A DNA stretch of 64,000 bases from contig JAQTPI010000005.1 of the NCBI GenBank assembly GCA_028748975.1, positions 8,933-72,932 of the forward strand, read 5' to 3'. The stretch is from Patescibacteria group bacterium. Lineage in GTDB: Bacteria > Patescibacteriota > Patescibacteriia > UBA2196. Below are positions 1,350-62,748 of the stretch, in pieces. Under the pieces are notes generated by a model. That model had not been told where the DNA came from, made no database searches, and saw nothing but the letters and a program-made list of their open reading frames with translations. Position 1 is the first letter of the stretch, and the number at the start of each line of letters is the position of its first letter. The position numbers and the translations under genes are program-made.

Positions 1350-2936
1350 TTATATTTTTTCAACTGCTTTTTTTATACGCCCTAGGCTTTCTTCTTTGCC
1401 CAAAACTTCGGCGACTTCGAAGGGGCTGGGAGATTTTTCCCGGCCGGTCAAAGCGACGCGGAGAGGCCAGAGGACATTGCCGGTTTCAAGTTTGCCGATG
1501 GAAATTAGTTCTTTAATGAAGGCCTCCAAATTGTTTTTGTTCCAATCTTCGTTTGGAATTTCAGAAAGTTTTTCAATTAAAAATTCCAGTTTTTCTTTGG
1601 CGTCTTTTAAATCGGCTTTGCGCCATTTTAATAATTCTTTTTCATATTGCGGTTCGGTAAAGAAATAAGCGGTGGCTTCGGCAATGTCGGAAAGTTTGTT
1701 GAGGCGGGGCTGTTCTAAGGAAATTATTTTTTTGAGGTATTTTTTGTCTTCCCATGTGCCACGGGGTCCTTCGACTCGTCCCGAGTATTCGGGACTTCGC
1801 TCAGGACAGGCTTTGAGAAAAGGTAGACATAAATCTACTAATTTATCTAAATCCATTTTTTTGATGTATTCCCCATTCATCCAATCCAATTTATTAATAT
1901 CAAAAATGGCGCCGGCTTTCTGGACTTTTTCCAAAGAAAATTCTTTTTCCAAATCTTTCAGAGAAAAAATTTCTTGTTCGGTGCCGGGGTTCCAGCCCAA
2001 AAGCGCGATGTAATTAATTAGGGCTTCAGGCAAATAGCCGAGTTTTTTAAATTCTAAAACAGAAGTGGCGCCGTGGCGTTTGGAAAGTTTGGATTTGTCC
2101 GGCGCCAAAATCAATGACAGGTGCCCGAATTCCGGCGCGTCCCAGCCCAGAGCTTTATATAAAATTAAATGTTTAGGCGTGGAAGACAGCCAGTCCTCAG
2201 CGCGGATGACATGAGTAATTTCGCTTTCGTGGTCATCAATCACGTTGGCCAAATGATAAGTTGGAAAACCGTCGGATTTGATTAAAATTTGGTCATCAAT
2301 TTCTTTTAAATTAAAACTGACTTGTCCGCGGATGAGATCGTGAAAGGTAATTATCCCCTCCTTTCGAAGGAGGGGTGCTCCGACAACGATCGGAGCAGGG
2401 TGGTTGTTTGTTTCGTTTACAACCCCCTTGTCCCTTCGGGACACTCCCCCTTCGAAAGGGGGAGATATGTGCTCGGAAATTTTCATTCTGATGACGTGCG
2501 GTTCACCGGCTTTTAATTTTTCTCCAATTTCTTCTTTGGATAAATTCAAGCAATGGCGGTCATATTTGGGTGCGACTTTGCGCGCAATCTGTTCCTCGCG
2601 CATTTTTTCCAATCGTTCGGCAGAACAAAAACAATAATAGGCGTCGTCTTGCTCCACCAACTGTGCCGCAAATTTCTGATAAATTTCCGTGCGTTTTGAT
2701 TGAAAAATTATATTATCTTTATTATCATAATCCAGTCCGGCCCATTTCAGGCCCTCAAAAATTACTTCAGTACTTCCCTCTTTATATCGCGTTTGGTCTG
2801 TGTCTTCAATACGTAATAAAAATTCTCCGCCATTGTGTTTGGCGAATAAATATTCAAAAAGCGCCGTACGCAAACTACCGATGTGTAAATCACCAGTTGG
2901 GCTTGGCGCAAACCGTGTCTTGACTGTTTTTTTCAT
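1350..2936 (-). CDS. gltX: glutamyl-tRNA synthetase
   Basis: N-terminus RFAPSPTGDLHIGSLRTALF (HIGH class I aaRS) and full-length GluRS architecture; stop TAA. Confidence 0.9.
   Translation of the reverse strand: MKKTVKTRFAPSPTGDLHIGSLRTALFEYLFAKHNGGEFLLRIEDTDQTRYKEGSTEVIFEGLKWAGLDYDNKDNIIFQSKRTEIYQKFAAQLVEQDDAYYCFCSAERLEKMREEQIARKVAPKYDRHCLNLSKEEIGEKLKAGEPHVIRMKISEHISPPFEGGVSRRDKGVVNETNNHPAPIVVGAPLLRKEGIITFHDLIRGQVSFNLKEIDDQILIKSDGFPTYHLANVIDDHESEITHVIRAEDWLSSTPKHLILYKALGWDAPEFGHLSLILAPDKSKLSKRHGATSVLEFKKLGYLPEALINYIALLGWNPGTEQEIFSLKDLEKEFSLEKVQKAGAIFDINKLDWMNGEYIKKMDLDKLVDLCLPFLKACPERSPEYSGRVEGPRGTWEDKKYLKKIISLEQPRLNKLSDIAEATAYFFTEPQYEKELLKWRKADLKDAKEKLEFLIEKLSEIPNEDWNKNNLEAFIKELISIGKLETGNVLWPLRVALTGREKSPSPFEVAEVLGKEESLGRIKKAVEKI
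2354..2466. mobile_element. paired-hairpin palindromic element (family B) inserted in-frame in gltX
   Basis: cccctcctttcgaaggagggg ... ctcccccttcgaaagggggag; encodes about 38 extra aa (ISPPFEGGVSRRDKGVVNETNNHPAPIVVGAPLLRKEG) without stop; same module recurs at 15400, 33621, 48922, 50343. Confidence 0.6.
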
Positions 2937-3002
2937 AGATGATAAGGTTATTTTAGAAACTAATTAAGTCTTTTAAAACCCAAAAAATGAGGAGGAAAAA
3001 CC

Positions 3003-3305
3003 GTGAACACACTAATAAAAATTAAGCTGTATTTTACAAAAGTTCACAATTCTACCCCCTTTATTTTACAATCATTTCTTCTTGTGATTTTTTGTCTTTT
3101 TAATTTTTTTGTCTTCGCTGGAAAATCAAAGGAATTTTTGGTGTGGAATTATGTATTTTTTCTTCTTATTTCCGGCTTTTTTTCTATTTTTCTATTATCT
3201 GGAAAAACAGAAGACAAAGATAGTATATGCGATGAATATCATAAATGCGTTTATGTTTTTATAAGTTTTTTATTTTATATGATTTCATCGGGTTTATTGT
3301 TTTAA
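3003..3305 (+). CDS. small hydrophobic membrane protein (GTG start)
   Basis: strong SD aaaatgaggaggaaaaacc before GTG; 100 aa, multiple predicted TM helices. Confidence 0.45.
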   Translation: MNTLIKIKLYFTKVHNSTPFILQSFLLVIFCLFNFFVFAGKSKEFLVWNYVFFLLISGFFSIFLLSGKTEDKDSICDEYHKCVYVFISFLFYMISSGLLF

Positions 3306-3321
3306 TTTTACACAGGAAAAA

Positions 3322-3356
3322 CAATACTCGCTTGCCAAACGCGCTTTAAGCGTTTG
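3322..3356. repeat. 35-bp hairpin-containing direct repeat, copy 1
   Basis: atactcgcttgccaaacgcgctttaagcgtttgg; second copy at 3678-3712 (2 mismatches); internal palindrome ccaaacgc/gcgtttgg. Confidence 0.6.
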
Positions 3357-3384
3357 GACAGAAAAATATTAACCCAAAAAACAA

Positions 3385-3707
3385 GGAGGAAGACGGTGAT
3401 TAAAAAAGTATTAGTTTATTTTTTGAGAGTAGCAAGTTGGGCCATTACTATCTCTGGTACGGGATTACTGGCAACGGCGATGTTTCTTATCATCGAAAGT
3501 TTATACGTATTTATTTTTGGAATTAATTTTTTTTATATTTTTCCCAAAGAATTTTTATTCAATATGGCAATCCCTTCTTTTTGTAGGTTTTGGCTAATTG
3601 CCGGAGTAATTTCCGCACCGGTCGTTTCAATAATGGATATCCCTAAGCCAAGATTTTTTAAATACTTGCCATGGGAAAATTATACTCGCTTGCCAAATGC
3701 GCTTTAA
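3385..3707 (+). CDS. small membrane protein (GTG start; ORF track shows upstream-extended 3354..3707)
   Basis: SD acaaggaggaagacg then GTG at 3385; hydrophobic; gene flanked by 35-bp direct repeats. Confidence 0.4.
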
Positions 3708-4541
3708 ACGTTTGGGCTGGTGAAGCAAGCGATACAACCATTCAAACGAGCCCTGCCACTTGGTCGGGGCTCTTTTTATTTTTCCCGCCCAATAATCAAA
3801 TGCTCCGCCAACACCAATCGCCAATTTTACACTTGGCATTTTGGGCAAATTTTCGTTAATCCATTTTTGAGCTTTGGGATGATTTAAGGCAACGAAGAGA
3901 ACGGTGGGCTGAAAGGAATTTATTTTTTCAATGATATTTTCGGCTTCAAAAATAGTATAACCAAACTCCAAAGATTCCATCGCCCCTTCGGGGCTCGGAA
4001 TGACATTCTTTTTTAGATTTTCCATTACTAATCGTGGTGTATCACCAAAACCTCCCAACAAAAATATTTTCTTGTTTGTCATCCCGGGCTTGACCCGGGA
4101 TCCAGAAAACGACGTGGATTCCGGCTCGGGGGCCGGAATGACAGAAAGAAGTTTGCAAATTTCCGGGATCAAATCCGTGCCGGTGATTGTCTCTTTAATT
4201 ATATCCAATTTTTCGTCTTTTTTCAACATTCCCCACCAGGCAATTTTTAGCCCCGTGAAAAATTTTCTGATTACTGATTTCTGATTACTAATTTTTGCCA
4301 GATACTTCGCGGCGAGGCGGAGACCGTAACCATCAGGGACGGAAAGCCAGGAATTGTTAATGATATTTTTAAAATTTTCGTCTTTTTGCGCGGATAAAAT
4401 AAATTCGGGATTGGTGGTAACCAATTGTTCACCCTTTTCATCCGATTGTTCACCCTTTTCATCCGATAATAAAAGCTGTTGGATTTTGGCCAACACTTCG
4501 GGTTTGGGTAGATTGTCTACGTGGACGCCCAGAATAATCAT
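3627..4541 (-). CDS. WecB/TagA/CpsF-family (GT26) glycosyltransferase
   Basis: TTNPEFIL...LLGG...LFVALNHPKAQKW...GVGGAFDYWAG...QP.R..R pattern; carries two in-frame insertions (see repeat features). Confidence 0.75.
   Translation of the reverse strand: MIILGVHVDNLPKPEVLAKIQQLLLSDEKGEQSDEKGEQLVTTNPEFILSAQKDENFKNIINNSWLSVPDGYGLRLAAKYLAKISNQKSVIRKFFTGLKIAWWGMLKKDEKLDIIKETITGTDLIPEICKLLSVIPAPEPESTSFSGSRVKPGMTNKKIFLLGGFGDTPRLVMENLKKNVIPSPEGAMESLEFGYTIFEAENIIEKINSFQPTVLFVALNHPKAQKWINENLPKMPSVKLAIGVGGAFDYWAGKIKRAPTKWQGSFEWLYRLLHQPKRLKRIWQASIIFPWQVFKKSWLRDIHY
3678..3712. repeat. 35-bp direct repeat, copy 2
   Basis: atactcgcttgccaaatgcgctttaaacgtttgg. Confidence 0.6.
4077..4143. mobile_element. MITE-like palindromic element (family A) in-frame in glycosyltransferase
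   Basis: tgtcatcccgggcttgacccgggatcc...ggattccggctcgggggccggaatgaca; translated as VIPAPEPESTSFSGSRVKPGMT. Confidence 0.65.
4424..4465. repeat. 21-bp in-frame tandem duplication
   Basis: attgttcacccttttcatccg x2, giving SDEKGEQ SDEKGEQ in protein. Confidence 0.7.
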
Positions 4542-6081: not shown

Positions 6082-6092
6082 TTTTTTTACAG

Positions 6093-6252
6093 CCTGCCCT
6101 GAGCGATAGCGAAGGGCCCCCGGATGAACTTGGGGAGACATAAATTTCAAAGCCTTTTATATCCTTATTTCCTTATATCTTTATTATCATCCACTTCGGT
6201 CACGGGATCCTTCACTTTGGCCGATTGCTATCGGCCTTCGTTCAGGATGACA
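6093..6252. mobile_element. MITE-like element (family A, with AT-rich core)
   Basis: cctgccctgagcgatagcgaaggg ... aaagccttttatatccttatttccttatatctttatta ... gatccttcac...cgttcaggatgaca. Confidence 0.65.
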
Positions 6253-6263: not shown

Positions 6264-7046
6264 ATGTTAGTTTTTTCCGCCATTGTCCCCCATCCTCCCA
6301 TTTTAATTCCGGCTATTGGCAAGGAAAACTTAGAGGTGATTAAAAAAACCAAATTTGCCATGGAAGAATTAGCCGAGCATCTTTACGCCGCTAAACCAGA
6401 AGTGATTATTGTTGTTTCGCCGCACGGTGAATTGCATGAAGGAAAAATAACTATCAATCAGGCACCAAAATTTGTGGGCGCGTTTAATAAATTTGGAGAT
6501 TTGACTACCAAAATGGAGTGGCAAGGAGAACTTGGCCTGTCATATAAAATTTATGAAAAAATGGAAACCGAGGGGACGGCGCGTTTAATTCATGATGAAA
6601 ATTTGGATCATGGCGCGGCCGTACCACTTTTTTATCTGGCGCAAAATTTGCCAGAGGTAAAAATTTTACCGATTAATTATTGCTTGCGTGATTTGAAGTT
6701 TCACTTTGATTTTGGCAAAGAATTGGGAGAAATAATCCATGCCGAAAACAGGCGCGTGGCTTTTATCGCCTCGGGCGACCTCTCCCACCGCTTAACCAAA
6801 GACGCGCCAGCCGGCTACAACCCAAATGGAAAAAAGTTTGATAAATTATTATTAGCTTTGTTAAAAGAAAAAAAATACGAGGAAATTTTAAATATGGATG
6901 TGGATTTAGTGGAAGACGCGGGCGAATGCGGATTGCGTTCCATTGCCGTACTTTTGGGAATAATAAAAGATATGAATATCACACCACAATTACTTTCTTA
7001 TGAGGGGCCGTTTGGGGTTGGGTATGCGGTGATGGAGATAGTATAG
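6264..7046 (+). CDS. LigB-family class III extradiol dioxygenase-like protein
   Basis: VPHPPIL...VVSPHGE...HGAAVPLFYL pattern typical of LigB/DODA-type fold; 260 aa. Confidence 0.6.
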   Translation: MLVFSAIVPHPPILIPAIGKENLEVIKKTKFAMEELAEHLYAAKPEVIIVVSPHGELHEGKITINQAPKFVGAFNKFGDLTTKMEWQGELGLSYKIYEKMETEGTARLIHDENLDHGAAVPLFYLAQNLPEVKILPINYCLRDLKFHFDFGKELGEIIHAENRRVAFIASGDLSHRLTKDAPAGYNPNGKKFDKLLLALLKEKKYEEILNMDVDLVEDAGECGLRSIAVLLGIIKDMNITPQLLSYEGPFGVGYAVMEIV

Positions 7047-7077
7047 TAGTAATAAGTAATAAGTAACTAGTAATAAG
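7047..7077. repeat. stop-rich heptamer tandem repeat (TAATAAG)n
   Basis: tagtaataagtaataagtaactagtaataag immediately after TAG stop; same motif at 16455, 47455, 47771, 52836, 56236, 59900, 62595. Confidence 0.7.
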
Positions 7078-7095
7078 AGAGACTATGGAAAATAA

Positions 7096-7125: not shown

Positions 7126-7576
7126 GATTGGTGGGGAAAATGTTGAAGTTCCCCAGTATTTTCAGAAATCGCCCCAAATGTTTGGCCTGGGCACACAAAT
7201 GTTCCAGGGCGGGTTTCTGCCGTCATTGCTTACACTGTTGACGTAAGGGAGACTTGATCACCTCCCCCTCAACAAGCGCGGGACGGCCTCAATATCGCGT
7301 CGGGTTAAATCGGACCGCATCCGACATAGCCATTACTCTGCCGGGCCGTCGGACCGATACCAGCTCTCGTCAGCGTGGGGGCTTACCAGGCAGTCGCCTC
7401 AGCCACAACAACGACAAGCGGCAATGTTAGTGTAGCATATGCAAAAAATATTTGTCAAATAGTATTTGGTGGATAACTTCTAATAGTTTTTTGTTTATTT
7501 GTCGGTAGATGGATATTTACGATATTACGATATATCGTAATATCGTAAATATGATAATAAATTACGAATGACAAAT

Positions 7577-7606: not shown

Positions 7607-9625
7607 ATTGCGGAAATTATACCAGCGGTAAGATTACCGCGAAATCTGAATTCTTTTAGTTATTTGGTGCCGGCGGAAATGGCTGGTGTTCTTAAGGTTG
7701 GCATGATTGTAGAAGTTGATTTTAGAGGGAGAAAAGTTGACGGACTAATAATAAAAATCAGAAAACAGAAATCAGAAAACAGAAATCAGAAAACAGAAAT
7801 CAGGGAGAAAAATAATTTTAAATTAAAGCCGATTAAGAAAATTGTTTTCCCCACCCCACTCGTTACTTTGGCGCAGATTGATTTGATAAGAAAAATTGCC
7901 AAATATTATGGCGTGTCGGAAGGGGTGGTGTGCCGGTCGTTTTTACCGGCGCTTTCTAAGCGCCTCCTACGAATGTACGAATCCTACGAATATACGAATA
8001 GAACAACTAAAACGAAAAAAGTTAAAATAGTGAACTCACATCTTTTCTGGTGGCAGAACTTAGACGAACGAAATACGGAATATAAAAAAAATATTAATAA
8101 AACCAAAGGGCAGATTTTGATTCTGACGCCGCAGATTGATTTTATTGAGCAATTAATAAAAGATTTAAAATTGGATGAAAAAAAAGTGATTAGAATTCAT
8201 AACGGCATTAAACCCAAAGAGTTTTTTGAGAACTGGTTGAAAATTTTATCGGGCGAGCCAAAAATTATCATTGGCACCAAAATGGCCTTGACACTTTCCT
8301 TCTCTAATTTGAAAACTATTATTATTGACGAGGAGCAGGATTGGAATCATAAACAATCAGATATTAATCCGCGCTATGACGCGCGGATGGTGGCGGAATG
8401 GCTGGCGAGTGCGCACGGAGCGGAGTTGGTTTTGGCGAGCGCGGCGCCGAGGGTGGAGACATATTACGAATTATTGAAATCAGAAAACAGAAAACAGAAA
8501 TCAGGGGATTCTACGAGATCCCTCGGCTCCCCCGAGTACTCGGGGTCGCTCGGGATAAACTTAGTGAATTTACAAGACGAAAAGACCAAAGGCAATTATT
8601 CCCTACTCTCGGATTCACTCAAAGAAAAAATTGAAGAAATATTAAAAACAAATAAAAAAATATTTTTACTGCATAACCGCAAAGGTACCTCGGGTTTTGT
8701 TTCTTGCGCAGACTGCGGTCATGTTTTTTTATGCCCGGAGTGTCAAATTTCTTTGAATTATTTTCAGACGCAAGGAAGATTAAAATGCGGCCATTGCGCG
8801 CATCAAGAAGAAGTTCCGCCGCTTTGTCCGAAATGCAGCGGACCGAAGATTACTTTTAAAGCCAAGGGCGTGGAAGATCTGGCGCTGGAATTAAAAAAGA
8901 TTTTTCCAGAGATAAATATTTTAGCGGCTTTTAAAAATGAAGGTAAAAAAACAGATTTCAGCAAAGCGCAAATTATCGCGGGCACAGAATTCGCCCTAAG
9001 TAAGATTAATTGGGAGGAAATTGGGTTGGCTGCTATTGTTAATTTTGACCAATTGGTAAACCGGCCGGATTTGGGAGCGCAAAAAGGCGCCTATGATTTA
9101 TTAAAATATATTCAGGGTAGATTGCAGGGCGAACTTATTATTCAGGCGCATAATTTGGATAATATAATTTTGAAAAGCATAAAAGAAAATAGGCCGGAAA
9201 TTTTTTATGAAAATGAACTGGAAAACCGCAAAGATCTTAACTATCCCCCGTTTTGCCGTCTGATTAAAATTATTTTTCAAGATAAATCCAAGGCCCGTGC
9301 TTATTATTTAAGCGACCAGTTGGCGCGGGAGATAAAAAAATTACACACTTGTCATTCCGAGCGAGAGCGAGGAATCCCTTATATTTCCCATACAAGAAAG
9401 ACGAAGGGATCCTTCACTTCTCCGCCTGCTGGCGGATTCGTTCAGGATGACAACACAACCGATTGGCAAGTGAATGGTCCGATACCCGCTGTGCCGGAAA
9501 AAATCCGCGGTAATTTTTTCTATCATATTATTGTTAAACTACCGCTGGCGGCGGATTTAAATAAATTATTTAAAATTATTCCGCCGGATTTTGTGGTTGA
9601 CACAGACCCAGAAAAGTTGACGTAA
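7604..9625 (+). CDS. priA: primosomal protein N' (PriA), probably helicase-inactive
   Basis: N-terminal 3'BD, LTPQ motif, Cys-rich zinc region CADCGHVFLCPECQ...CGHCAH...CPKCSG; Walker A (GxGKT) absent, DEEH replaced by DEEQ; several in-frame repeat insertions. Confidence 0.8.
   Translation: MIAEIIPAVRLPRNLNSFSYLVPAEMAGVLKVGMIVEVDFRGRKVDGLIIKIRKQKSENRNQKTEIREKNNFKLKPIKKIVFPTPLVTLAQIDLIRKIAKYYGVSEGVVCRSFLPALSKRLLRMYESYEYTNRTTKTKKVKIVNSHLFWWQNLDERNTEYKKNINKTKGQILILTPQIDFIEQLIKDLKLDEKKVIRIHNGIKPKEFFENWLKILSGEPKIIIGTKMALTLSFSNLKTIIIDEEQDWNHKQSDINPRYDARMVAEWLASAHGAELVLASAAPRVETYYELLKSENRKQKSGDSTRSLGSPEYSGSLGINLVNLQDEKTKGNYSLLSDSLKEKIEEILKTNKKIFLLHNRKGTSGFVSCADCGHVFLCPECQISLNYFQTQGRLKCGHCAHQEEVPPLCPKCSGPKITFKAKGVEDLALELKKIFPEINILAAFKNEGKKTDFSKAQIIAGTEFALSKINWEEIGLAAIVNFDQLVNRPDLGAQKGAYDLLKYIQGRLQGELIIQAHNLDNIILKSIKENRPEIFYENELENRKDLNYPPFCRLIKIIFQDKSKARAYYLSDQLAREIKKLHTCHSERERGIPYISHTRKTKGSFTSPPAGGFVQDDNTTDWQVNGPIPAVPEKIRGNFFYHIIVKLPLAADLNKLFKIIPPDFVVDTDPEKLT
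7751..7802. repeat. in-frame heptamer microsatellite (CAGAAAA/CAGAAAT)n
   Basis: aaaatcagaaaacagaaatcagaaaacagaaatcagaaaacagaaatcagg gives KIRKQKSENRNQKTEIR; second short array 8471-8500. Confidence 0.7.
8515..8570. mobile_element. MITE module (gagatccctcg...cgggataaac) in-frame in priA
   Basis: gagatccctcggctcccccgagtactcggggtcgctcgggataaac encodes RSLGSPEYSGSLGIN. Confidence 0.6.
9350..9452. mobile_element. MITE-like element (family A) in-frame in priA
   Basis: tgtcattccgagcgagagcgaggaatcc...tccgcctgctggcggattcgttcaggatgaca encodes HTCHSERERGIPYISHTRKTKGSFTSPPAGGFVQDDNT. Confidence 0.65.
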
Positions 9626-10937: not shown

Positions 10938-10944
10938 TTTTTAG

Positions 10945-10989
10945 ATTCCCGCCTGCGCCTGCCTAGACGGCAAGACTGGCGGGAATGAC
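10945..10989. mobile_element. short palindromic element (gattcccgcctgcg...ggcgggaatgaca)
   Basis: same module found in-frame at 29124-29201. Confidence 0.5.
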
Positions 10990-10998
10990 ATAATCAAT

Positions 10999-11410: not shown

Positions 11411-11547
11411 CCTGTCCTGAGGGGTCCGAGTGAAACAAGGGCGACGAAGGACACCTTGCGAACCAGGGTAGATTATATTTTATATATCTTACCTGTTTGC
11501 CACGGGATCCTTCGTCGTCGTTCTTACTCCTCCTCAGGATTGAGTCG
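11411..11547. mobile_element. MITE-like element (family A)
   Basis: cctgtcctgaggggtccgag...gggatccttcgtcgtcg...cctcaggattgagtcg. Confidence 0.55.
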
Positions 11548-11552
11548 CGAAT

Positions 11553-11723
11553 TTACTTTACCTTCGTTTCCTTGTGTTTGGTATGCTTGCGGCAAGTATT
11601 GCAAAATTTATTCAGCTCCAGTTTTTCTTTAAGTATTTTTTTATTTTTAGTGCTGAAATAATTGATATTGCGACAAACCGTGCATTCAAAGCCGATGAGT
11701 TTTTCTTTATATTTGGTAGCCAT
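11553..11723 (-). CDS. rpmG: 50S ribosomal protein L33 (below 60-aa ORF-track cutoff)
   Basis: minus-strand translation MATKYKEKLIGFECTVCRNINYFSTKNKKILKEKLELNKFCNTCRKHTKHKETKVK, CxxC...CxxC L33 pattern, TAA stop at 11553-11555. Confidence 0.8.
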   Translation of the reverse strand: MATKYKEKLIGFECTVCRNINYFSTKNKKILKEKLELNKFCNTCRKHTKHKETKVK

Positions 11724-50328: not shown

Positions 50329-50342
50329 AATAAATATTTTGT

Positions 50343-52467: not shown

Positions 52468-52756
52468 CATAATTGTCTCCTTTTTTATTATGAATTTTCC
52501 TTGTTTCAATTCCCCAATATTTAATTTTAAAGGTCAGCGATTTTTTTCCGTAATACTTAAGTATAGCACAACCACAGAACTTGTCAAGTGGATAACTTAA
52601 ATAAATTCTAAAAAGGCTGTTTTTTGGCTAATTTAAGCCAAAACAAATACCCGAATTAGTACGAATTTTACCCGAATTTATCCGAATATTACGGAATTTT
52701 TAATTTTAACAAAATATTAAAAAATATCAAATTTGGGGATAAGTGGGGATGAAAAA

Positions 52757-52830
52757 GGCGGTCCGATCCGCCAGTTGGCGGATCGGACCGCCTCAAAATA
52801 TATCTTTATATCCTTATATCTTTATTTTTA
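52757..52830. mobile_element. MITE-like element
   Basis: ggtccgatccgccagttggcggatcggaccgcc...tatatccttatatctttat. Confidence 0.5.
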
Positions 52831-52875
52831 GTTTTTGTCTTCCCTTATTACTTAATTACTAGTTACTTATTACTA

Positions 52876-55800
52876 CTATCTCTCCGCCACCACCCCAAAA
52901 TATCCATCTTTTAATAAATCCGCGGAATAAGTAATCACGCTTCCCTCTTCTGCCACGCCAGAGCCGGCGGTGGCCTGAATTTTATAATTGGCTGGCAAAA
53001 TTAGTTCGCTTTGGAAATCAATCGCGTTCATACCAAGTTGTTTATCAACAACCAAACTGTATTTGGCTTCGTCATTTTTTCCAAATAGAGCCGCAAACCA
53101 TTGTTTAATTTTATTATTGCTTTTGGCCGTACCAAACTGGAAAGGCAGTTTATATTTGATGGTGACTGTTTTTTCCTGGCCCGGCGCCACTTGCAGCCAG
53201 TTGCCAAAAACAGTTTTGCCAAATTCAGAAGAAACACGCGTGCCCGTGGCTTCGTCCAAAGAAACATTGGTTTCCACCGCGGCCAAAGTTTTGTCAGCAC
53301 TCATGCCGTCTTGGCTCGCGGAATATTTAAAAAGATAATCCGGATTAAAATTAAAACCGGTGGCGGAAATAAGTTCCGCGCCAGCGGGCACATAGAAACG
53401 GACATAATCAACATTATTGTCGCCTTCAAAAAGTTTACCCAATTCGCCATTATGCTGGCGCGTCAAACTGACGGTCGCGACCATGGCACCGGTTACGTCA
53501 ACTTCAACAGAGTGGCGCACGGTGTTTTTGATAACCGCATCGGTTTTGCCGCCGGAGATATTGGTATGCACGACCATTAAATAATCCTGATTATTTTCAG
53601 TGGCGCGAATCTTACCGGCCCAGCCAAAACGTTCGGCCAAATCTTCCGTATTTTTATCAGAAAAATAGAAAAGAATTTTTTCCTCGCTTAAAGCTTGGCT
53701 TAAGCCGGCGAGTACCGGCAGATAATCCTTGGTGTTTAAATTCATCAGACGCTCCAAAAGCACGGGCGCCATATCCGCGATAATTTCTTTGGGCCGATTT
53801 TTATTCTTGTCATATTCCAATTCCACGGCCGTTTGCATGGCAATGGTAAAATTTTCCGCGCTTAAGGTCTGCTTATATTCTTTCATTTCAATCGGCCCCA
53901 CAATTTTCAATAAATTGGCAACAGTATCTTGAGTTAAGCTGATGATGCCGTCAACCGAAGAACCGCCGTAATTATTCTCATAAAACCAAATTATTTTCTC
54001 GGCACTTGTCGGCCAATTCGGAAACCAGTTGGCATTCCAAATCTGCCAAGCCGGCGAAAAAATCTGCAGTGGCTTCGGCGCGGCCACTAAAACTTGGCTG
54101 CTGCTTTTTAAATCATAAAGGCCGCCGCCGGGAATATCCATTTTTTTGACCCGGCCCTTGTCCACATCCACCACGGCAAAAGAACCCATAAAACCACCGG
54201 TAGGCCTTAGTTCGTTGGAATTTTGGAAAACTACCAAATAACGCTTGGAAGTTTCGGCACCCAAAATATCCTGGCTGAAAAGTAAAATATCTTTGAGGCC
54301 GGCAATGGAGGTTTGCCAGTTTTTGGCGCCAATTTGCAGCGCGGAGAATTTTTCTTGGGCATCACTCGGCAATGAATCTTTGTCAATTTCATTAATCAAG
54401 TTGAGCGCGGCATTGATTTTTGTTTCTTCCGAACCAATGGTCTGGTGCAAAAAAGAAATTTTTTCCGTGAGAGCTGGTTCTGGCGCGTTAAAGACCGAAA
54501 GAGCTTGAGTAATTTTTTGGGCCGAAGCGGAAAGATATTGCCCGGCTGCCAGAAGTTTTTCGCCGTCGCGCGCTTTGGGTACCAGCTTGATTAAAGAATT
54601 AGTCAGAGGCCCCAATTCTTTAATTTGCTTTTGCGCCAGATAAAAAGCACTTTCAGCGCGGCCAAAATTAGCCACGGCGGCAGTGATGTCGTTTTCTGAA
54701 AAATTGCCGGCTGCTTGTTCCAAATAATTCAAACCCTGCGAAGAGGTGCCCAAAACATCGCCTTGAGTTTTTTGAGCCGCGCGCCAAGAATTCCAAACCA
54801 GAAGAGGCAAAACGATAATCAAAGCGGTCAAACCAAAATTAATCAAAGGTTTTAAAGAAAATTTTCTTTCGGCTAAAACCATGGCCGGGGCTTCGCGTTT
54901 TTTAAAAAGATAGCCAATTGACCGGATTAAATAGGAAATATTAAACTTGAAAAGTTTGGTGATTTGCCGAACGACAAAAGTTAGGCCAGCCCAAACTCCT
55001 TTTAGGGTGTGATCGACTACAAAATCCAAAAGGCGAAAGGGCGCGGTTAAGGCCTGCCAGAAAAAATATATAAATTTTCCCAAAAGAGTGAGTGGTAAAT
55101 CAAAAGTCCAATAAAAAAAACCGTGGGTGCGCGGAGTGGCAGGAACAGCGATAAAATTATCGGTGCCGCGCGCCAAGCCGGAAGAAATTAAATCCACTTT
55201 CACTTTTTTTATTTTCTTTTTTTGCTTGTTGATTTTTTTCAAATCGGCTTTCAGAGCCAAGTTGGCGGCGTCTTCCGGCATATCAAAACCCAAAATTTCA
55301 CGAACATGCTTTTGGCGCGTGCTTTGTTTTTCTTCTTCCCAAAGATATTTGACTTCGGACATGGGGGTCAAAGGAGCGGTTTCTGTCGTTTCTTTAATCT
55401 GGTAATCTTTAAATTTGGGCGCGCGCAAATCCACCACATGGGCGGAAGCACGGCGGTTATTTTTGATTTTAAGTTTGGATTCTTGAGGCAAATCCACCAA
55501 GGGTTCGGCTGTGACTGGAAAGATATAATTTTCCGGCAATTCACTTGGCAATTCGGAAATATTTATTTTTGCCTTGAATTCCTGCCAGGTCATTTGCGGC
55601 AGAACTTTATTATCTTTTTCTATTTCTTCCATTTTATTTTCAATTTCCGGCAATTTTTTTTCTATTTTTTCATCATTTTCCGCCAGACTGATTAAAACTC
55701 GCGGCAGAGAGATGTCCATGACAAAATTTTTGTGCGGACGGCCGCGCGCGCCTTTTTTGGGCGCGTATTTCAAAAGCCACTCTTCTTGAGGCGAGAGAAC

Positions 55801-56004
55801 TTTGTGCGGACGGCCGCGTTCACGTTTTTCCATTTTGGCCAAAGCCGCCAATTCTTCCGGCGTCCATTCTTTCTTGGGCCGGCCACGCGGTCTTTTTGGC
55901 TTATTTTGCAACGCCAAAAGCTCGTCCGCTGTGAAGACTTTACGAGGTCTACCACGTTTTTTCTTTTCCGTGAACTGTGAATTTTTTATGGTATTTTCTG
56001 ACAT
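52876..56004 (-). CDS. large membrane protein: N-terminal AT-hook repeats, TM region, DUF4012-like extracytoplasmic domain
   Basis: four GRP-core AT-hook-like motifs (KRGRPRK, RGRPKK, RGRPHK x2) in first 90 aa; hydrophobic segments; C-terminal region with LRPTGGFMGSF motif; 1042 aa. Confidence 0.65.
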   Translation of the reverse strand: MSENTIKNSQFTEKKKRGRPRKVFTADELLALQNKPKRPRGRPKKEWTPEELAALAKMEKRERGRPHKVLSPQEEWLLKYAPKKGARGRPHKNFVMDISLPRVLISLAENDEKIEKKLPEIENKMEEIEKDNKVLPQMTWQEFKAKINISELPSELPENYIFPVTAEPLVDLPQESKLKIKNNRRASAHVVDLRAPKFKDYQIKETTETAPLTPMSEVKYLWEEEKQSTRQKHVREILGFDMPEDAANLALKADLKKINKQKKKIKKVKVDLISSGLARGTDNFIAVPATPRTHGFFYWTFDLPLTLLGKFIYFFWQALTAPFRLLDFVVDHTLKGVWAGLTFVVRQITKLFKFNISYLIRSIGYLFKKREAPAMVLAERKFSLKPLINFGLTALIIVLPLLVWNSWRAAQKTQGDVLGTSSQGLNYLEQAAGNFSENDITAAVANFGRAESAFYLAQKQIKELGPLTNSLIKLVPKARDGEKLLAAGQYLSASAQKITQALSVFNAPEPALTEKISFLHQTIGSEETKINAALNLINEIDKDSLPSDAQEKFSALQIGAKNWQTSIAGLKDILLFSQDILGAETSKRYLVVFQNSNELRPTGGFMGSFAVVDVDKGRVKKMDIPGGGLYDLKSSSQVLVAAPKPLQIFSPAWQIWNANWFPNWPTSAEKIIWFYENNYGGSSVDGIISLTQDTVANLLKIVGPIEMKEYKQTLSAENFTIAMQTAVELEYDKNKNRPKEIIADMAPVLLERLMNLNTKDYLPVLAGLSQALSEEKILFYFSDKNTEDLAERFGWAGKIRATENNQDYLMVVHTNISGGKTDAVIKNTVRHSVEVDVTGAMVATVSLTRQHNGELGKLFEGDNNVDYVRFYVPAGAELISATGFNFNPDYLFKYSASQDGMSADKTLAAVETNVSLDEATGTRVSSEFGKTVFGNWLQVAPGQEKTVTIKYKLPFQFGTAKSNNKIKQWFAALFGKNDEAKYSLVVDKQLGMNAIDFQSELILPANYKIQATAGSGVAEEGSVITYSADLLKDGYFGVVAER

Positions 56005-56020
56005 TTATCTATATATTATG

Positions 56021-56095
56021 CCCGCCTCGCGTCGACTTGCCCGCTTCGCTAAATCGAGGCGAGCGTCTGACGCGAGTCGAGGCGGGCGAATTACT
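56021..56095. repeat. GC-rich palindromic element (family C) directly upstream of large membrane protein start
   Basis: gcccgcctcgcgtcgacttgcccgcttcgctaaatcgaggcgagcgtctgacgcgagtcgaggcgggcgaatt; homolog of 18578-18652. Confidence 0.6.
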
Positions 56096-56285
56096 GGCTA
56101 ATTTTGCGAATATTTTTTTATTTATTTATCCACAATTTATTTAACTACTATAATTCTACCATAAATAGTCAAAAAATACGAAAAAAATCGAGAAAAAATA
56201 GCTAAAATAAACAAAAACGACGCTATTATAGCATCGTTAATACTTTTATTACTTCTATTGCTTTTATTACTCTATTACTTAATTT

Positions 56286-59784: not shown

Positions 59785-59937
59785 ACAGTTTAATTTCTAA
59801 TTTTCAATTTTTAATTTCTAATAACGCAATTATGTGCGCCTATCGGCGAAGTGTATAAACCTCACCCTGCCCCCTCCTTGGTAAGGAGAGGGGGGCGGTT
59901 CCCTTATTACTCTATTACTCTATTACTTTATTACTTG

Positions 59938-61617
59938 TTATTCCACCACCACTCCCCCAAAATCTTCCAAGACCATATTAATCGGCTCGGCGGCGGCTTC
60001 TTTTTTTTGTTCGCGGGCTTTGACGGCGGCGGCTTTCAAGTCGCTTGGCAAAACCGAGCATTTGACCACGAAATCGCAAGCAAAGGCCTTTTTCAAAATT
60101 TCTTCCAGAATTTTGCGCGCTTTGATTTCTTTAAAACGTTCGCAATAAAAAGAATGTTCAAAACCGATTTCCAAATTATTTTCTTTCAAATTCAAGACGT
60201 GCGCAGTTTGCAGAGCGATGGCAGCTGATTGGTTAACAGTGTGGCTGGCCACAATTACTTCCGGCCAGCGATTATTAATTTCTTCCAAAGTTAGATTGAT
60301 TAGAATTTCCTGCTTTTTATCGCTACCAGCAGCCACTGTGTCATCCCGGACTCCGATCCGGGATCCATTTTCCTCTTTTCTGGATTCCGGGTCAAGCCCG
60401 GAATGACAGACGGATTTATCTTTTTTATTTTCTGGTATTTCAGTTTTTACTTCTACCGGAGTTTCTTTTTTTATAGTTTTGGCTGGTGTCACGGCAGTTT
60501 TTACCACTTGCGGCGCCAGCGGAACATAATTATTTAACGAATCTTCGCAAAGTTCAATCACGCCCATCTCTAATGGCAATTGTGAAATTTCGGCGCGCTT
60601 CAAATCATTCAGGCGCGCCATAAAGACATCCATAATTTTTAAAATTTGACTGGCTTCGGCTTCTTTGGCTTGCGCATACATTTGCTCGCCTGTTTCCTGC
60701 CAGCCGTCGGTTTCCACGCCCAATTTAATTAAAATCAATTTACGCAGATATTCAATCAAATCAGCGGTAAAATGCTCCAAATCAACCCCCTCCTCCACCA
60801 AAGTATTAACCAACTCCAGCGCTTCTTTGGCATTTTTTTTAATTAAAAATCCGGCCAAGCGCGCCACCAATTCAAAATCCGAGCGTGGCAAAATGGCCGC
60901 GGCGTCTTCAATTTTAATGTCTCTTTTACCCAAAGACAACACCTGGCCCAGCAAACTTAGCGAATCGCGGACAAAACCGCCGGTTAAAGTCACGATATTT
61001 TTAACCACCGCGTCGTCAAGATTGAAACCCTCTTCTTTGGCAATATTTTTCAAATACGGAGCCAAGACTTTGGCATCCACGCGGCGAAAATCAAAGTGCT
61101 GGCAGCGAGAAACGATGGTTTCCGGCAGTTTATACAGTTCGGTGGTGCATAGAATGAAGATGCAGTGCGCTGGCGGCTCTTCCATGGTTTTAAGTAGCGC
61201 GTTAAAAGAAGAAGAGGAAAGCATGTGGACTTCGTCAATAATGAAAATTTTAAATTTATCGCGGTAAGGAGTGAAGCGCGCGCTGTCCACAATGTTATCG
61301 CGAACTTTATCAACCTGGGTGTTGGAAGCGGCGTCAACTTCAATCATATCCAAGGATTTGCCTTCTTTAATTTCCAAACAGGATGGGCACTGGTCGCAGG
61401 GTTCAAATTCGCCATTTTTTCTTTGGTGGCAATTTAAAGCCTTGGCCATGAGCCGCGCCACGGTGGTTTTGCCAATGCCTCTCGGCCCCGCGAAAAGATA
61501 GGCATGCGAAACAGCCCCGGTTTTGATTTCATTTTCCAGAGTTAATTTGATATGGTTTTGCCCGATTAATTCAGCAAAAGTCTGTGGGCGGTATTTGCGG
61601 TAAAGAGTGAGGGACAT
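59938..61617 (-). CDS. dnaX: DNA polymerase III subunit gamma/tau
   Basis: YRPQTF..GQ, Walker A GPRGIGKTT, zinc module CxxC..C..C; in-frame MITE insertion. Confidence 0.9.
   Translation of the reverse strand: MSLTLYRKYRPQTFAELIGQNHIKLTLENEIKTGAVSHAYLFAGPRGIGKTTVARLMAKALNCHQRKNGEFEPCDQCPSCLEIKEGKSLDMIEVDAASNTQVDKVRDNIVDSARFTPYRDKFKIFIIDEVHMLSSSSFNALLKTMEEPPAHCIFILCTTELYKLPETIVSRCQHFDFRRVDAKVLAPYLKNIAKEEGFNLDDAVVKNIVTLTGGFVRDSLSLLGQVLSLGKRDIKIEDAAAILPRSDFELVARLAGFLIKKNAKEALELVNTLVEEGVDLEHFTADLIEYLRKLILIKLGVETDGWQETGEQMYAQAKEAEASQILKIMDVFMARLNDLKRAEISQLPLEMGVIELCEDSLNNYVPLAPQVVKTAVTPAKTIKKETPVEVKTEIPENKKDKSVCHSGLDPESRKEENGSRIGVRDDTVAAGSDKKQEILINLTLEEINNRWPEVIVASHTVNQSAAIALQTAHVLNLKENNLEIGFEHSFYCERFKEIKARKILEEILKKAFACDFVVKCSVLPSDLKAAAVKAREQKKEAAAEPINMVLEDFGGVVVE
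60339..60408. mobile_element. MITE-like element (family A) in-frame in dnaX
   Basis: gtgtcatcccggactccgatccgggatcc...ggattccgggtcaagcccggaatgaca encodes SVCHSGLDPESRKEENGSRIGVRDDT. Confidence 0.7.
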
Positions 61618-61630
61618 AATTATGGTTGGT

Positions 61631-61861
61631 TGTCATTCCGAGGAGAGAAACGACGAGGAATCCTGTAAATTTTATATTTAATGTCAAAATCCCAATGTCA
61701 AATGACCAATCAATGTCAAAATCCAAAATCCTAAAAAATTACGCGCTCTGTAGCCATTTGACATTTAACCATTAGTCATTGATTTGGCATTGGAAATTTG
61801 ACATTTGGCATTCACAACTGACGAGATCCTTCAGCCGATATCTATCGGCTTCAGGATGACA
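61631..61861. mobile_element. MITE-like element (family A ends) with internal aatgtcaaa inverted repeats
   Basis: tgtcattccgaggagagaaacgacgaggaatcc ... atgtcaaaatcccaatgtcaaatgacc ... gagatccttcagccgatatctatcggcttcaggatgaca. Confidence 0.65.
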
Positions 61862-62408
61862 CCCCCTTGTCATCACCACCTTTTATCACATTCTCCAGCG
61901 CCGCCTGACTGGCCTCCAGGCCTTTCGGAATCAAAATTATGACTTCATCGCCGGCCTCGCCTTTGAAATAGGTGACGGAGGCGTGAAGCAGTTTATAACT
62001 TTTGCCATTGTCCAAAAGCGCGCGATATTCATCTTTTTCGCTGTCATAAAGAAGTTTGCCTTTCTGGCGTTCGCGTTCCTGGGGCTTGATTTGCTTATAA
62101 ACAAAAGTGCCGTCAGATTTAATAACCAGTTTTAAAACATCACCTTCCACCAGTTTGGATTTGGAGGCATAGTTGGCGGGCACGCTGTATTCTTTTTCGT
62201 CCGGACCAATCATACAGACGCCATTAAAAACACCCTCCACAATTTGTTCCTCGCCGTCTTGCGATTGATTAAGGTCCAGCCGCCGCGCCATAATATGGGC
62301 GGAGTCTTCGCCGCCAGTCAGTTCTTCCATAATTTCCCGCGCCTGCCTTAAATTTATTTCGGCCGTTTCAATTAAATTTTTGAGTTCTAAAAGTTTTTTG
62401 TTTTTCAT
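61851..62408 (-). CDS. hypothetical protein
   Basis: 185-aa ORF, N-terminal helical region then beta-rich KLVIKSDGTFVYK segment; stop lies inside MITE terminus. Confidence 0.45.
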   Translation of the reverse strand: MKNKKLLELKNLIETAEINLRQAREIMEELTGGEDSAHIMARRLDLNQSQDGEEQIVEGVFNGVCMIGPDEKEYSVPANYASKSKLVEGDVLKLVIKSDGTFVYKQIKPQERERQKGKLLYDSEKDEYRALLDNGKSYKLLHASVTYFKGEAGDEVIILIPKGLEASQAALENVIKGGDDKGVSS

Positions 62409-62434
62409 ATGTTTATTTTTATTTTTATTCGTAA

Positions 62435-62555
62435 TGTCATCCTGACGACCCGCGACAGCAGTCGGGGGAGGAAGGATCTCGTAGCGGTGTCATCCCGGGC
62501 TTGACCCGGGATCCAGTAACCGTTTTTCTGGATTCCCGCTTTCGCGGGAATGACA
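62435..62555. mobile_element. two adjacent MITE-like elements
   Basis: tgtcatcctgacgacccgcgacagcagtcgggggaggaaggatctcgtag + tgtcatcccgggcttgacccgggatccag...ggattcccgctttcgcgggaatgaca. Confidence 0.6.
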
Positions 62556-62697
62556 AGTTTTTATTTTTGTTTTGATTTTTTATTTTTATTTTTTTATTAT
62601 CCCCTTATTACTTATTATTAGTTACTTATTACCAGTAATTTACCCTCTAATTCTACCTCATTTTGGCCGGTATTGTCAAAATGTGATATAATTTACA

Positions 62698-62748
62698 CGA
62701 GATCCCTCGACTCGGCCGATTGCTATCGGCCTCGCTCGGGATAAACTG
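62698..62748. mobile_element. MITE module (gagatccctcg...cgggataaac)
   Basis: gagatccctcgactcggccgattgctatcggcctcgctcgggataaactg. Confidence 0.55.

Follow-up and report, generated by a model that had tools for sequence, protein, structure and literature searches.

How do conserved genes of a Patescibacteria genome come to hold palindromic repeats within their reading frames, and what kind of repeat settles there? We address this question in a 64,000-nt stretch of DNA (positions 8,933 to 72,932 of contig JAQTPI010000005.1, assembly GCA_028748975.1; hereafter the window), which is the part of the source genome that our analysis covers. The original prediction had described dense palindromic elements like MITEs (miniature transposable elements with inverted repeats), lying in frame in essential genes in the manner of Rickettsia palindromic elements (RPEs). 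We find that the window carries a modular family of GC-rich hairpin elements, that every copy within a gene leaves the host frame open, and that these elements are likely non-autonomous, selfish repeats akin to repetitive extragenic palindromic sequences (REPs) and their inverted doublets (REPINs).

The window belongs to a metagenome-assembled genome (MAG) of a Patescibacteria lineage close to Kuenenbacteria: the GluRS and DusB proteins of the closest relatives are ~70-78% identical to those of the window, and the named ones among these relatives are Kuenenbacteria. With a G+C content of 40.7%, it encodes an ordinary housekeeping gene set together with genes typical of the candidate phyla radiation (CPR), comprising for translation GluRS, CysRS, a class II aminoacyl-tRNA synthetase (aaRS), LepA, RRF, deformylase and nine tRNAs, and otherwise PriA, DnaX, HolB, an aldolase, TIM, RseP, FtsEX, glycosyltransferases and a DUF4012 protein; Pfam scans of the open reading frames (ORFs) over all 64 kb reveal no transposase, integrase or PF05635 gene. 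The relatives compared are sets of GluRS and DusB proteins (P-numbers) and four contigs (L001-L004), all distant from the window, and the exact insertion boundaries are therefore not fixed.

GC-rich palindromes are abundant and keep host genes in frame

The terminal motif GRATGACA occurs 34 times in the window where 2.66 occurrences are expected (maximum of 7 in 100 shuffles), and GAGATYCC occurs 14 times versus 2.76 expected. Perfect GC-rich hairpins (stem ≥6) number 66, compared with 5-9 in Markov shuffles, and 50 segments of 40 nt reach a minimum free energy of -20 kcal/mol or lower, against an expectation of 0.7. Our catalogue holds 41 elements or clusters of 33-230 nt, one per 1.6 kb, which together make up 3,823 nt or 6.0% of the window; at least 30 copies at about one per 2 kb had been claimed. 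Fourteen of the 41 lie wholly within Pfam-supported ORFs, where at least 12 had been proposed, and coding DNA is depleted in elements, with 34% of them in 77% of the sequence. Palindromic elements are present at every position given by the original prediction, with three boundaries redrawn: the first GT2 element spans 28895-28963 and not 28905-28963, the shorter priA element ends at 8561 (8515-8561) and not at 8570, and the second dusB element begins at ~33598 and not at 33621. Two intragenic copies had been overlooked (gltX 1757-1811 and WecG 3971-4005), and the description of the hosts as essential genes is only partly apt, since universal essentiality does not hold for DusB, the GT2 glycosyltransferase or the Wzy-like protein. 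No element matches Rfam 15 at the gathering score, which only tRNAs pass in the window; permissive Rfam scans of single elements return only sub-threshold matches to generic hairpins (microRNA precursors), and the consensus doublet has no match in annotated plasmid and phage collections.

The copies within genes are given below by position, with the host residues that they encode; E-values are those of a covariance model (CM) built solely from other-phylum sequences.

1757-1811: gltX, half-module (GCCTGTCCTGAGCGAAG-hairpin-CGAAGGACCCC) in frame, residues 376-394 (ACPERSPEYSGRVEGPRGT)
2354-2466: gltX, five-hairpin polypurine-type element (CTCCCCCTTCGAAGGGGGAG ... CCCCTCCTTCGAAAGGAGGGG) in frame, residues 157-195
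3971-4005: WecG/TagA-like gene, short half-module GTCATTCCGA-GCCCCGAAGGGGC-GATGGAATC, residues 180-190 (CM E = 0.0027)
4077-4143: WecG/TagA-like gene, full two-hairpin element (TGTCATCCCGGG...CCGGAATGACA), residues 134-155 (VIPAPEPESTSFSGSRVKPGMT)
8515-8561, + strand: priA, GGGATAAAC-type half-module, residues 304-320 (RSLGSPEYSGSLG)
9350-9452: priA, full element, residues 583-616 (CHSERERGIP...GGFVQDD; CM 9350-9378 E = 2.5e-6, 9406-9452 E = 3.2e-7)
26808-26912: Wzy-like membrane protein gene, full GGGATAAAC-type element, residues 332-367, Wzy_C match stretched by ~45 residues
27063-27102: Wzy-like ORF, hairpin CCTGCCTGCCGGCGAGGCAGG adjoining an AT-rich array
27496-27594: Wzy-like gene, full doublet, residues 105-137 (RHSERSASWRR...ALGMT; CM E = 3.9e-4, 0.15)
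28895-28963: GT2 glycosyltransferase gene, full doublet, residues 116-138 (CHSGEGRNPGTFFLDPVSRPGMT), Pfam matches stretched
29124-29201: GT2 gene, element GATTCCCGCC...GCGGGAATGACA, residues 37-62, PF00535 match of 104 residues for 76 profile positions
33091-33131: dusB, half-module, residues 90-102 (RSHRSAVSGPRDD; CM E = 0.017)
33598-33705: dusB, polypurine-type multi-hairpin element, residues 258-294
60339-60408: dnaX, full doublet after domain III in the C-terminal extension, residues 404-426 (CHSGLDPESRKEENGSRIGVRDD)

Downstream of each of the 14 intragenic copies the host frame is maintained, and none of the copies introduces a stop into it. Taken by itself, an element is open in only three to five of the six frames, and one phase per orientation meets the TGA of the terminal ATGAC. 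In WecG one element type is translated from the codons GTC-ATT-CCG (V-I-P), and in DnaX, GT2 and PriA from xGT-CAT-TCC (C-H-S), so that of the earlier claim of different frames and orientations the two phases stand, whereas a different orientation is weakly defined for a near-palindrome. The peptides quoted at that time, VIPAPEPESTSFSGSRVKPGMT for WecG and VCHSGLDPESRKEENGSRIGVRDDT for DnaX, are exact.

Alignment of the window's GluRS to solved GluRS structures gives two aligned blocks, with residues ~154-192 lacking a counterpart and a gapped stretch at ~376-396, and the Pfam catalytic domain is split at residue 158. In the AlphaFold model, pLDDT falls below 50 at exactly residues 158-192 and 377-394, the former lying between the confident strands 148-151 and 195-200. 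The alignment shows no variation at H18, G20 and K283-R287, the residues of the class I signature, and gltX thus looks functional; the peptides predicted to span the GluRS junctions are ISPPFEGGVSR and GVVNETNNHPAPIVVGAPLLR. Relative to 1vhn, DusB has a 15-residue insert at residues 90-102 and an unaligned segment, 256-299, between the barrel and the C-terminal domain; PriA residues 304-320 face only a short, gapped, non-conserved stretch of Klebsiella PriA that is about nine residues shorter, and the GT2 and Wzy-like Pfam matches are stretched by 28-45 residues at the element positions. These comparisons bear out the proposal that the segments are lineage-specific insertions, absent as they are from solved GluRS and DusB and from some close relatives, and reduced to a short gapped stretch in PriA; they also agree with the expected placement in surface loops, the GluRS insertions being modelled as low-confidence loops between confident strands. 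If translated, the inserts would form short, probably disordered loops rich in Pro, Gly, Ser, Arg and Glu. In-frame copies are found elsewhere in the LeuRS of a Moranbacteria (L073) and the TsaD of a Saccharibacteria (L070).

Elements are assembled from exchangeable hairpin modules

The building block is a half-module, a hairpin about 30-50 nt in length. Its outer stem, YGTCAT(C/T)C(C/T)G ... C(A/G)G(G/A)ATC, is conserved and encloses an exchangeable perfect inner hairpin; typically, two half-modules are joined as an inverted doublet 65-125 nt long. One doublet form reads GTCATCC-hairpin-GGATCTCGT, a short spacer, and then ACGAGATTCC-hairpin-GGAATGACA, with the left half written TGTCATCC..GGATCTCGT; the second has the centre GGATCCAG...CTGGATTCC, and variant termini are GGGATAAAC or CAGGACAGGC. 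The same ends sometimes enclose polypurine hairpins (CCCCTCCTTCGAAAGGAGGGG), as at 50343-50468, where GTCATCC and GGAATGAC ends surround such hairpins and the two repeat types therefore share their ends. At least five intergenic composites of 170-230 nt place an AT-rich palindrome with an 8-nt period between two GC modules. The inner hairpins TCCGCCAGCTGGCGGA, GTCCCGAnnnnTCGGGAC, GGCCGATTGCTATCGGCC and CCCCGAGTACTCGGGG recur within different outer modules, which establishes the elements as modular.

Insertion sites turn over among relatives

Among relatives, GluRS ranges from 470 to 586 residues and DusB from 290 to 448 residues. GluRS site 1 is empty at the DNA level in L001 (ATT CCG GAA / GGC GAA) and holds polypurine-type hairpins of 51 nt in L002, 90 nt in L004 and ~114 nt in the window, and the site 2 element (1757-1811) is missing in P0003/L001 and present as a variant in L002 and L004. 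At GluRS site 2 and at both DusB sites, different family members occupy different lineages, interleaved with empty ones, and encode peptides such as CHPERSA..EGSR, VIPAQAGIQ..., CHPHESEDLLSLWDSRFHGNDK and CHPGESRDPE...HGMT; DusB 90-102 is a hot spot with many different cassettes among relatives, and the element at 33598-33705 is missing in P0123, P0124, P0127 and P0154. The syntenic contig L004 is without the WecG 4077-4143 and PriA 8515-8561 elements, and the same WecG site is also empty in L002. The presence/absence polymorphism that had been anticipated in sister genomes is thus seen at GluRS, WecG, PriA and DusB sites. The neighbour-joining tree pairs the window's GluRS with P0003, which has neither insertion while the next outgroups have both, a pattern that points to clean loss; hairpin density is 1.9 per 10 kb (background) on the P0003 contig and 10.3 in the window, and element load differs three- to five-fold among relatives.

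WecG site 2 (3971-4005) is informative about how such diversity arises. Its outer stem, GTCATTCCGA...GGAATC, sits in the same codon phase with the same junctions in the window, L002 and L004, while the inner hairpins of the three genomes, GCCCCGAAGGGGC, GGCGCGACAGCAGTCGCGCC and TCCGCCAGTTGGCGGA, are unrelated, which is best explained by exchange of the inner hairpin through template switching or gene conversion between copies. It is possible, though we would not call it probable, that cassette diversity at one site instead reflects repeated independent insertions at a sequence-specific target. Such insertions would fit the unrelated element types that occupy GluRS and DusB loop sites across many lineages, with empty sites among them, and also the Xanthomonas recB genes that are reported to carry different REPs at about one site (PMC3733652); at WecG site 2, by contrast, the inner hairpin alone differs, and the occurrence of TCCGCCAGCTGGCGGA, GTCCCGAnnnnTCGGGAC and GGCCGATTGCTATCGGCC within different outer modules argues for modular exchange. 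Both processes may operate.

The core module recurs across phyla with a covarying stem

Exact matches to GTCATCCTGAGCG-N1-8-GCGAAGGATCTCGT (27-34 nt) occur in at least 120 GTDB species-genome stretches from at least 15 phyla, and the core module is therefore not lineage-specific. With taxonomy taken from MAG record titles, the matches listed include Acidobacteriota, Nitrospirota, Omnitrophota, Chloroflexota, Planctomycetota, Alpha-, Beta- and Gammaproteobacteria, Desulfobacterota, Bdellovibrionota, Bacillota (including an isolate), Bacteroidota, Actinomycetota, Gemmatimonadota, Nitrospinota, Binatia, Obscuribacterales, Saccharibacteria and Moranbacteria; long-read complete chromosomes and an isolate genome carry the family. 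Full doublets, with an inverted right half within 60-120 nt, account for 76 of the 121 matches listed. The flanking bases of 75 full copies extend the ends to YGTCAT...ATGACR, and no target-site duplication beyond chance is found in these 75 copies among the matches listed, relative to a shuffled control, nor at the window copies.

The right halves of these doublets reveal what is conserved. Where AGAT-X-C faces CAG-Y-ATGAC, the X:Y combinations are C:G in 24 cases, T:A in 23 and G:C in 10, with four non-pairs; across the stem alignment 97.7% of cells are paired, four of seven pairs change on both sides, none of 500 shuffles reaches the covariation score, and no slid register comes near it. 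This covariation indicates selection on a nucleic-acid hairpin and not on the peptide. The search fixed the left half, and the variation lies in the right half; what is under selection is therefore the half-module hairpin and not a long hairpin of the whole element. At E≤0.02 the CM identifies 18 copies in the window, and at E≤1 it identifies 30; the copies in priA, the Wzy-like gene, wecG and dusB are among them. It finds fewer copies per kb in the relatives than in the window.

Conservation of this kind raises the alternative that the hairpins are host-serving signals, acting in mRNA stability, RNase processing, attenuation, supercoiling or replication, and spread by recombination. The compensatory changes that keep the stem paired, a module nearly identical in at least 15 phyla, the many copies between co-directional genes and the lack of a nearby transposase are all compatible with such a role, and for published REPs a role as RNA elements downstream of genes has been proposed (PMC3733652). 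Against it, unrelated genes hold copies at arbitrary positions, in both orientations and read in two phases; copies come and go among close relatives, with three- to five-fold differences in load, and the depletion in coding DNA is that expected of deleterious insertions. We consider this alternative improbable, although it partly overlaps with the selfish reading, since a host function is compatible with selfish spread.

A loose-pattern scan of IMG/VR returned 46 matches, which is by estimate close to the chance expectation, with ~15 true family members among them, and the elements therefore do occur on contigs called viral; phages may carry or spread them. Four contigs classed as viral (L014, L013, L022 and L032) hold several copies of GTCATCCTGAAyTTrATTCAGGATCTCGT, sometimes beside polypurine hairpins. 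In the flanks of family copies from several phyla (L121, L109, L089, L071, L124, L136 and L139), the terminal 12-mer GTCATCCTGAGC is repeated two to three times at ~21-nt spacing adjoining a full element, which suggests nested or abortive insertions at the element's own end.

Origin and movement of the elements

Taken together, we judge it likely that the elements are non-autonomous, selfish palindromic repeats of the REP/REPIN kind. On this model, the family would have spread across Bacteria and then proliferated in the Patescibacteria lineage of the window, with copies landing in genes and spacers alike and gene-breaking copies purged by selection. The intragenic survivors would be those that added a multiple of three bases, avoided the frame in which the terminal ATGAC is read as TGA, and sat in tolerant surface loops or linkers, where they would be translated as short loops. 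Elements would subsequently be gained, lost cleanly or refitted with new inner hairpins, such that orthologous loop sites hold different cassettes. We infer that they move by a route that makes no duplication and is capable of clean excision.

HUH/Y1 enzymes of the IS200/IS605 and REP-RAYT (REP-associated tyrosine transposase) systems act on single-stranded hairpins, inserting without duplication and excising seamlessly, and the GCGAAGC core found here, with its flanking G·A mismatches, should form an exceptionally stable DNA mini-hairpin. This chemistry fits the arrangement of the elements as hairpin doublets, the lack of duplication, the asymmetry of ends and of strands and what appears to be seamless loss, and we tentatively propose that a trans-acting HUH/Y1 enzyme (RAYT- or IS200/IS605-like), or a similar structure-specific enzyme, might mobilise single-stranded DNA hairpins of this family. 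Against this route, Pfam scans of the window ORFs detect no RAYT (Y1/HUH), none is annotated on contigs L001-L004, no such gene recurs beside the copies at the ~120 listed loci, and the GTAG/CGTC tags of known REPs are missing. A bolder and rather doubtful suggestion is that the module defines an undescribed pan-bacterial superfamily of hairpin doublets, served by conserved host machinery or an unrecognised enzyme, which in CPR would be a major generator of lineage-specific protein loops through active cassette exchange at fixed loop sites.

Several observations weigh against the selfish reading. There is no transposase of any kind in the 64-kb window, and an all-against-all BLAST of 819 ORFs within 400 nt of the ~120 listed loci yields only small clusters of common families and no recurrent neighbour gene. 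It is unusual for selfish repeats to share a nearly identical 27-34-nt module from phylum to phylum, and this could point to a host function. The end-to-end lengths of the elements are not multiples of three, and frame preservation therefore depends on imprecisely placed boundaries or on later indels; the filled and empty sites compared come from relatives below 95% identity, which leaves the boundaries imprecise. On the + strand the doublet ends differ, with left ends of the GTCATCC type in 12 of 15 cases and right ends of the GGAATGAC type in 12 of 19 (Fisher p = 0.017), and GGGATAAAC-type modules are on the + strand in 6 of 6 cases (8515, 26869, 34314, 45259, 45510 and 62699), numbers that are small and confounded with gene orientation; the bias may reflect the direction of replication or transcription. 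Translation of the inserts is inferred from conservation of the frame, and RNA-level removal is judged on the same ground.

That removal, before or during translation by small introns, translational bypass or an intein-like process, would leave no added peptide. The hairpins are very stable and CPR bacteria carry insertions in their rRNA genes, either of which might be taken to favour it; yet all 14 copies are frame-preserving and stop-free, which would be unnecessary if they were excised, the unconstrained chance of frame preservation alone being ~(1/3)^14. Their 33-113 nt also fall far below the size of inteins or group I/II introns, and no Rfam family matches them. We therefore regard removal as very unlikely. 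An assembly or chimera artefact, conceivable for a MAG, as assemblers can be misled by palindromic repeats, is excluded with next to no doubt, because related elements fill orthologous sites in independent JGI, ENA, NCBI and Logan assemblies, complete chromosomes and an isolate carry the family, host genes continue in frame on both sides, and copies differ by compensatory changes.

Comparison with known repeat families

Many RPEs (Ogata et al. 2000/2002, in the summary of PMC10969869) lie in frame in unrelated housekeeping genes at fold-compatible positions, and there as here short palindromic repeats at high density in a small genome add lineage-specific peptide segments. The likeness drawn by the original prediction holds for in-frame insertion into unrelated genes and is one of analogy and not of demonstrated homology; by that analogy, there is support for the view that the elements would work like RPEs in function and consequence (PMC10969869). 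The host here is a member of the Patescibacteria, not the Rickettsiales, and the elements are stacks of short GC-rich hairpins, 33-125 nt, with exchangeable inner cassettes. RPEs are reported to end in CGTC (PMC3733652), an end not found here, where the ends are YGTCATYC / GRATGACR and the base after ..GGATCTCGT is variable, and at least 15 phyla share the core module of these elements in nearly unchanged form. Given the GC-rich hairpin composition, homology to the consensus sequences of RPE-1 to RPE-10 is unlikely.

In architecture the elements are closest to REPINs (PMC3116915). Both are short imperfect palindromes arranged as inverted doublets with a spacer, foldable in single-stranded DNA or RNA (PMC3116915, PMC3337134, PMC3733652); both lack target-site duplications and occur as singlets, doublets and clusters. 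Intragenic REPs, including different REPs at one site of a gene, are reported in several Proteobacteria (PMC3733652), and the phenomenon is in this sense of a known kind. Unlike REPs, the elements have no conserved GTAG/CGTC tag, with GTAG following the hairpin only in some copies (for example in Nitrospirales and at 49137 and 62476 in the window); 14 of 41 lie inside ORFs and are not extragenic, the window encodes no RAYT, and different phyla share a near-identical module, where REPs are normally species- or genus-specific and vertically inherited.

QMITE2 of Coxiella burnetii is likewise a REP-like palindrome with full and short versions that overlaps ORF 3' ends (PMC5896051), and in distant taxa it has a conserved stem with a divergent palindromic tip, comparable to the outer stem and inner hairpin described here (PMC5896051). 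Compared by description, full QMITE2 differs in having 7-11-nt direct repeats and a GTAG REP and in being mostly intergenic (PMC5896051). Classical MITEs (Correia/NEMIS, ERIC, Nezha) are also small, non-coding and dispersed with terminal inverted repeats, here TGTCATYC...GRATGACA, and are polymorphic between relatives and sometimes form in-frame fusions (PMC10969869, PMC3184786); they differ in that the elements here make no target-site duplication and their ends are themselves hairpins. The label MITE-like is accordingly apt for size, terminal inverted repeats and polymorphism, but the lack of target-site duplication and the hairpin-doublet architecture make the elements REPIN-like and not classical MITEs. 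A cognate insertion sequence with matching ends is not seen, with no transposase in the window and no long form between the ends in the 120 listed loci. The literature searched holds no paper that links CPR or Patescibacteria to MITEs, REPINs or REPs, and none that quotes the terminal sequences. Four features set the elements apart from these known systems: the lineage that hosts them, ends that lack a tag, cassettes that are modular, and a module that stays near-identical from phylum to phylum.

Patescibacteria genomes are among the smallest and densest of bacteria, and yet 6% of these 64 kb is selfish-looking hairpin DNA, a third of the elements being carried within functional genes of translation, replication and the cell envelope. 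The family would offer a second, independent and far more widely sampled system besides Rickettsia for protein segments born from repeats, with GluRS, DusB, LeuRS and TsaD as natural hot spots to study, and would help to explain the length variation and odd low-complexity loops of CPR proteins. Such repeats may create spurious ORFs and shift called starts or stops in annotation. Near-identity of the module across phyla, covariation of its stem and the absence of a known partner enzyme pose a mechanistic question that is approachable by phylogenetic profiling.

Elements outside conserved coding sequence and other repeats in the window

The remaining catalogued elements, many of them intergenic or at gene ends, are as follows.

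6092-6252: intergenic composite of a GC hairpin module, an AT-rich 8-nt-periodic palindrome and a GC module ending CAGGATGACA (CM 6204-6252 E = 4.4e-7)
10942-10990: intergenic half-module GATTCCCGCC...GGCGGGAATGACA (weak CM match, E = 0.18)
11411-11550: degenerate intergenic composite (CCTGTCCTGAG...AAGGAC / CACGGGATCCTTCG...CTCAGGAT; CM E = 0.045, 0.68)
11956-12054: full intergenic doublet GTCATCCTGACG..GGATCTCGTACGAGATTCC..CGGAATGACA, folding as a closing stem with three hairpin arms (CM E = 7e-7, 2e-5)
12981-13175: intergenic composite, ~195 nt, with AT-rich periodic centre (CM E = 3e-4, 4.4e-7)
15385-15540: intergenic composite with polypurine hairpins (CCCTCCTTAAGAAGGAGGG ... TCTCCCCCTTCTTAAGGGGGAGA; CM 15385-15413 E = 1.1e-5)
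16497-16545: polypurine-type half-module at the 5' end of an S11 peptidase ORF, called ATG (16499-16501) within terminus GGGGATGAC
17259-17320: half-module GATCCCAGG...CCCGGGATGACA adjoining the 3' end of the class II aaRS gene (CM E = 0.43)
18582-18631: hairpin CCCGCCTCGCGTCGA...TCGAGGCGGG, related to 56017-56100 and 29124-29201
21133-21216: three clustered perfect hairpins, intergenic, of no assigned family
22856-23028: intergenic composite, left module GTCATCCTGAGCGATAGCGAAGGATCC close to the pan-bacterial consensus (CM best E = 1.4e-9, second 2.5e-4)
30305-30330: solo hairpin TCCGCCAGCTGGCGGA, a cassette also found inside five other elements
34314-34360, + strand: intergenic GGGATAAAC-type half-module
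38702-38905: intergenic composite with AT-rich periodic centre (CM E = 0.09)
39950-39979: half-module CTGGATTCCCGCTTTCGCGGGAATGACA
44585-44646: strong hairpin at the 5' end of a CoaBC-like ORF, of no assigned family
45177-45306, + strand: GGGATAAAC-type composite (GTTTATCTTGAGCGG ... AT-rich ... GAGATCCCTCC..GGGATAAAC)
45420-45556, + strand: AT-rich periodic palindrome, then GGGATAAAC-type half-module
48919-49041: full polypurine-type element, intergenic
49105-49192: full doublet GTCATCCTGATCCGCCGGCTGGCGG..GGATCTCGTAGAATTTTTACGAGATTCC..GGAATGACA (CM E = 6.3e-8, 8.5e-4)
50343-50468: full element, GTCATCC/GGAATGAC termini round polypurine hairpins
52742-52829: hairpin with a 17-bp stem and the TCCGCCAGTTGGCGGA cassette at its tip, then AT-rich array
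56017-56100: hairpin CCCGCCTCGCGTCGA...TCGAGGCGGG with nested hairpin
59856-59908: polypurine hairpin CCCCCTCCTTGGTAAGGAGAGGGGGG, intergenic
61631-61861: intergenic composite, TGA stop (61851-61853) of ORF 61851-62408 within terminus TTCAGGATGAC (CM E = 0.06, 3.3e-9)
62435-62555: half-module followed directly by a full doublet, intergenic (CM E = 7e-7)
62699-62746, + strand: intergenic GGGATAAAC-type half-module

As the ATG at 16499-16501 and the TGA at 61851-61853 illustrate, gene ends may be supplied or shifted by the repeats. Coxiella and Legionella carry GTCATTCCCGCGAAAGCGGGAATCC-like repeats, which the copies at 39956-39979 and 62532-62554 presumably resemble; we take this as a lead and not as a result.

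A second class of repeat, AT-rich tandem arrays with a 7-8-nt period, is found at gene boundaries of the window.

24051-24103, 26132-26200, 30208-30284, 11721-11781: arrays of type CATAAAAG/CATTAAAG
7043-7079, 16453-16489, 47453-47489, 47759-47809, and inverted at 52853-52897, 62576-62644: arrays of type GTAATAA
26278-26334, 27003-27048, 31439-31487: arrays of type GTAATTT
7744-7810, 8466-8504, 4258-4297: arrays of type CAGAAAA

Some of these arrays are in frame within priA and the Wzy-like gene and encode heptad peptides such as QITNYEL; the array at 31439-31487 in the CysRS gene was considered as an insertion and set aside, as the protein aligns without gaps to solved CysRS and an insertion is not shown. 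In L002/L003 (9553-9921) and L001 (10253-10624), a gene for a four-helix bundle of PF05635 ('23S_rRNA_IVP') is flanked by inverted AT-rich 8-nt arrays. A reading of the window's composites as gene-less derivatives of such an arrangement is not supported for the GC modules, given that the window has no PF05635 gene and the GC termini never enclose a long form in the 120 listed loci; it may still apply to the AT arrays.

The 5.4 kb at 47500-52900 are without an annotatable protein gene, packed with palindromic elements and bracketed by the inverted GTAATAA arrays at 47453-47489 and 52853-52897; they hold a tRNA-Pro, and at 49642-49707 a weak tRNA-like sequence that scores 32.4 bits with Rfam and is not called by ARAGORN. 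Within them lies a GC-rich island of ~900 nt (50640-51560; ~60% G+C versus 40% for the genome) that has no convincing ORF and no Pfam, Rfam or plasmid match, and whose minus strand folds much better than shuffles (z = -4.64); it could be a large structured RNA of a new type or foreign DNA. Two related long hairpins (AAGGATCCTTGCCG...CGGCAAGGAT) are found in a spacer at 52005-52060 and 52237-52300.

Between gltX and wecG, a 40-nt repeat, AATACTCGCTTGCCAAACGCGCTTTAAGCGTTTGG, occurs twice (3321-3360 and 3676-3715), upstream of the second small membrane-like ORF (from ~3397) and near its 3' end; relatives have a PF05635 gene or a nucleotidyltransferase gene at this spacer position. The 5' part of the DUF4012 gene (55725-55898) contains three direct repeats of ~70 nt that encode KRGRGRPKK-like, AT-hook-like motifs, and such motif repeats are also present in the L002 orthologue. 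A perfect AT-rich palindrome (ATATTTACGATATTACGATATATCGTAATATCGTAAATAT) is located upstream of priA at 7501-7564.

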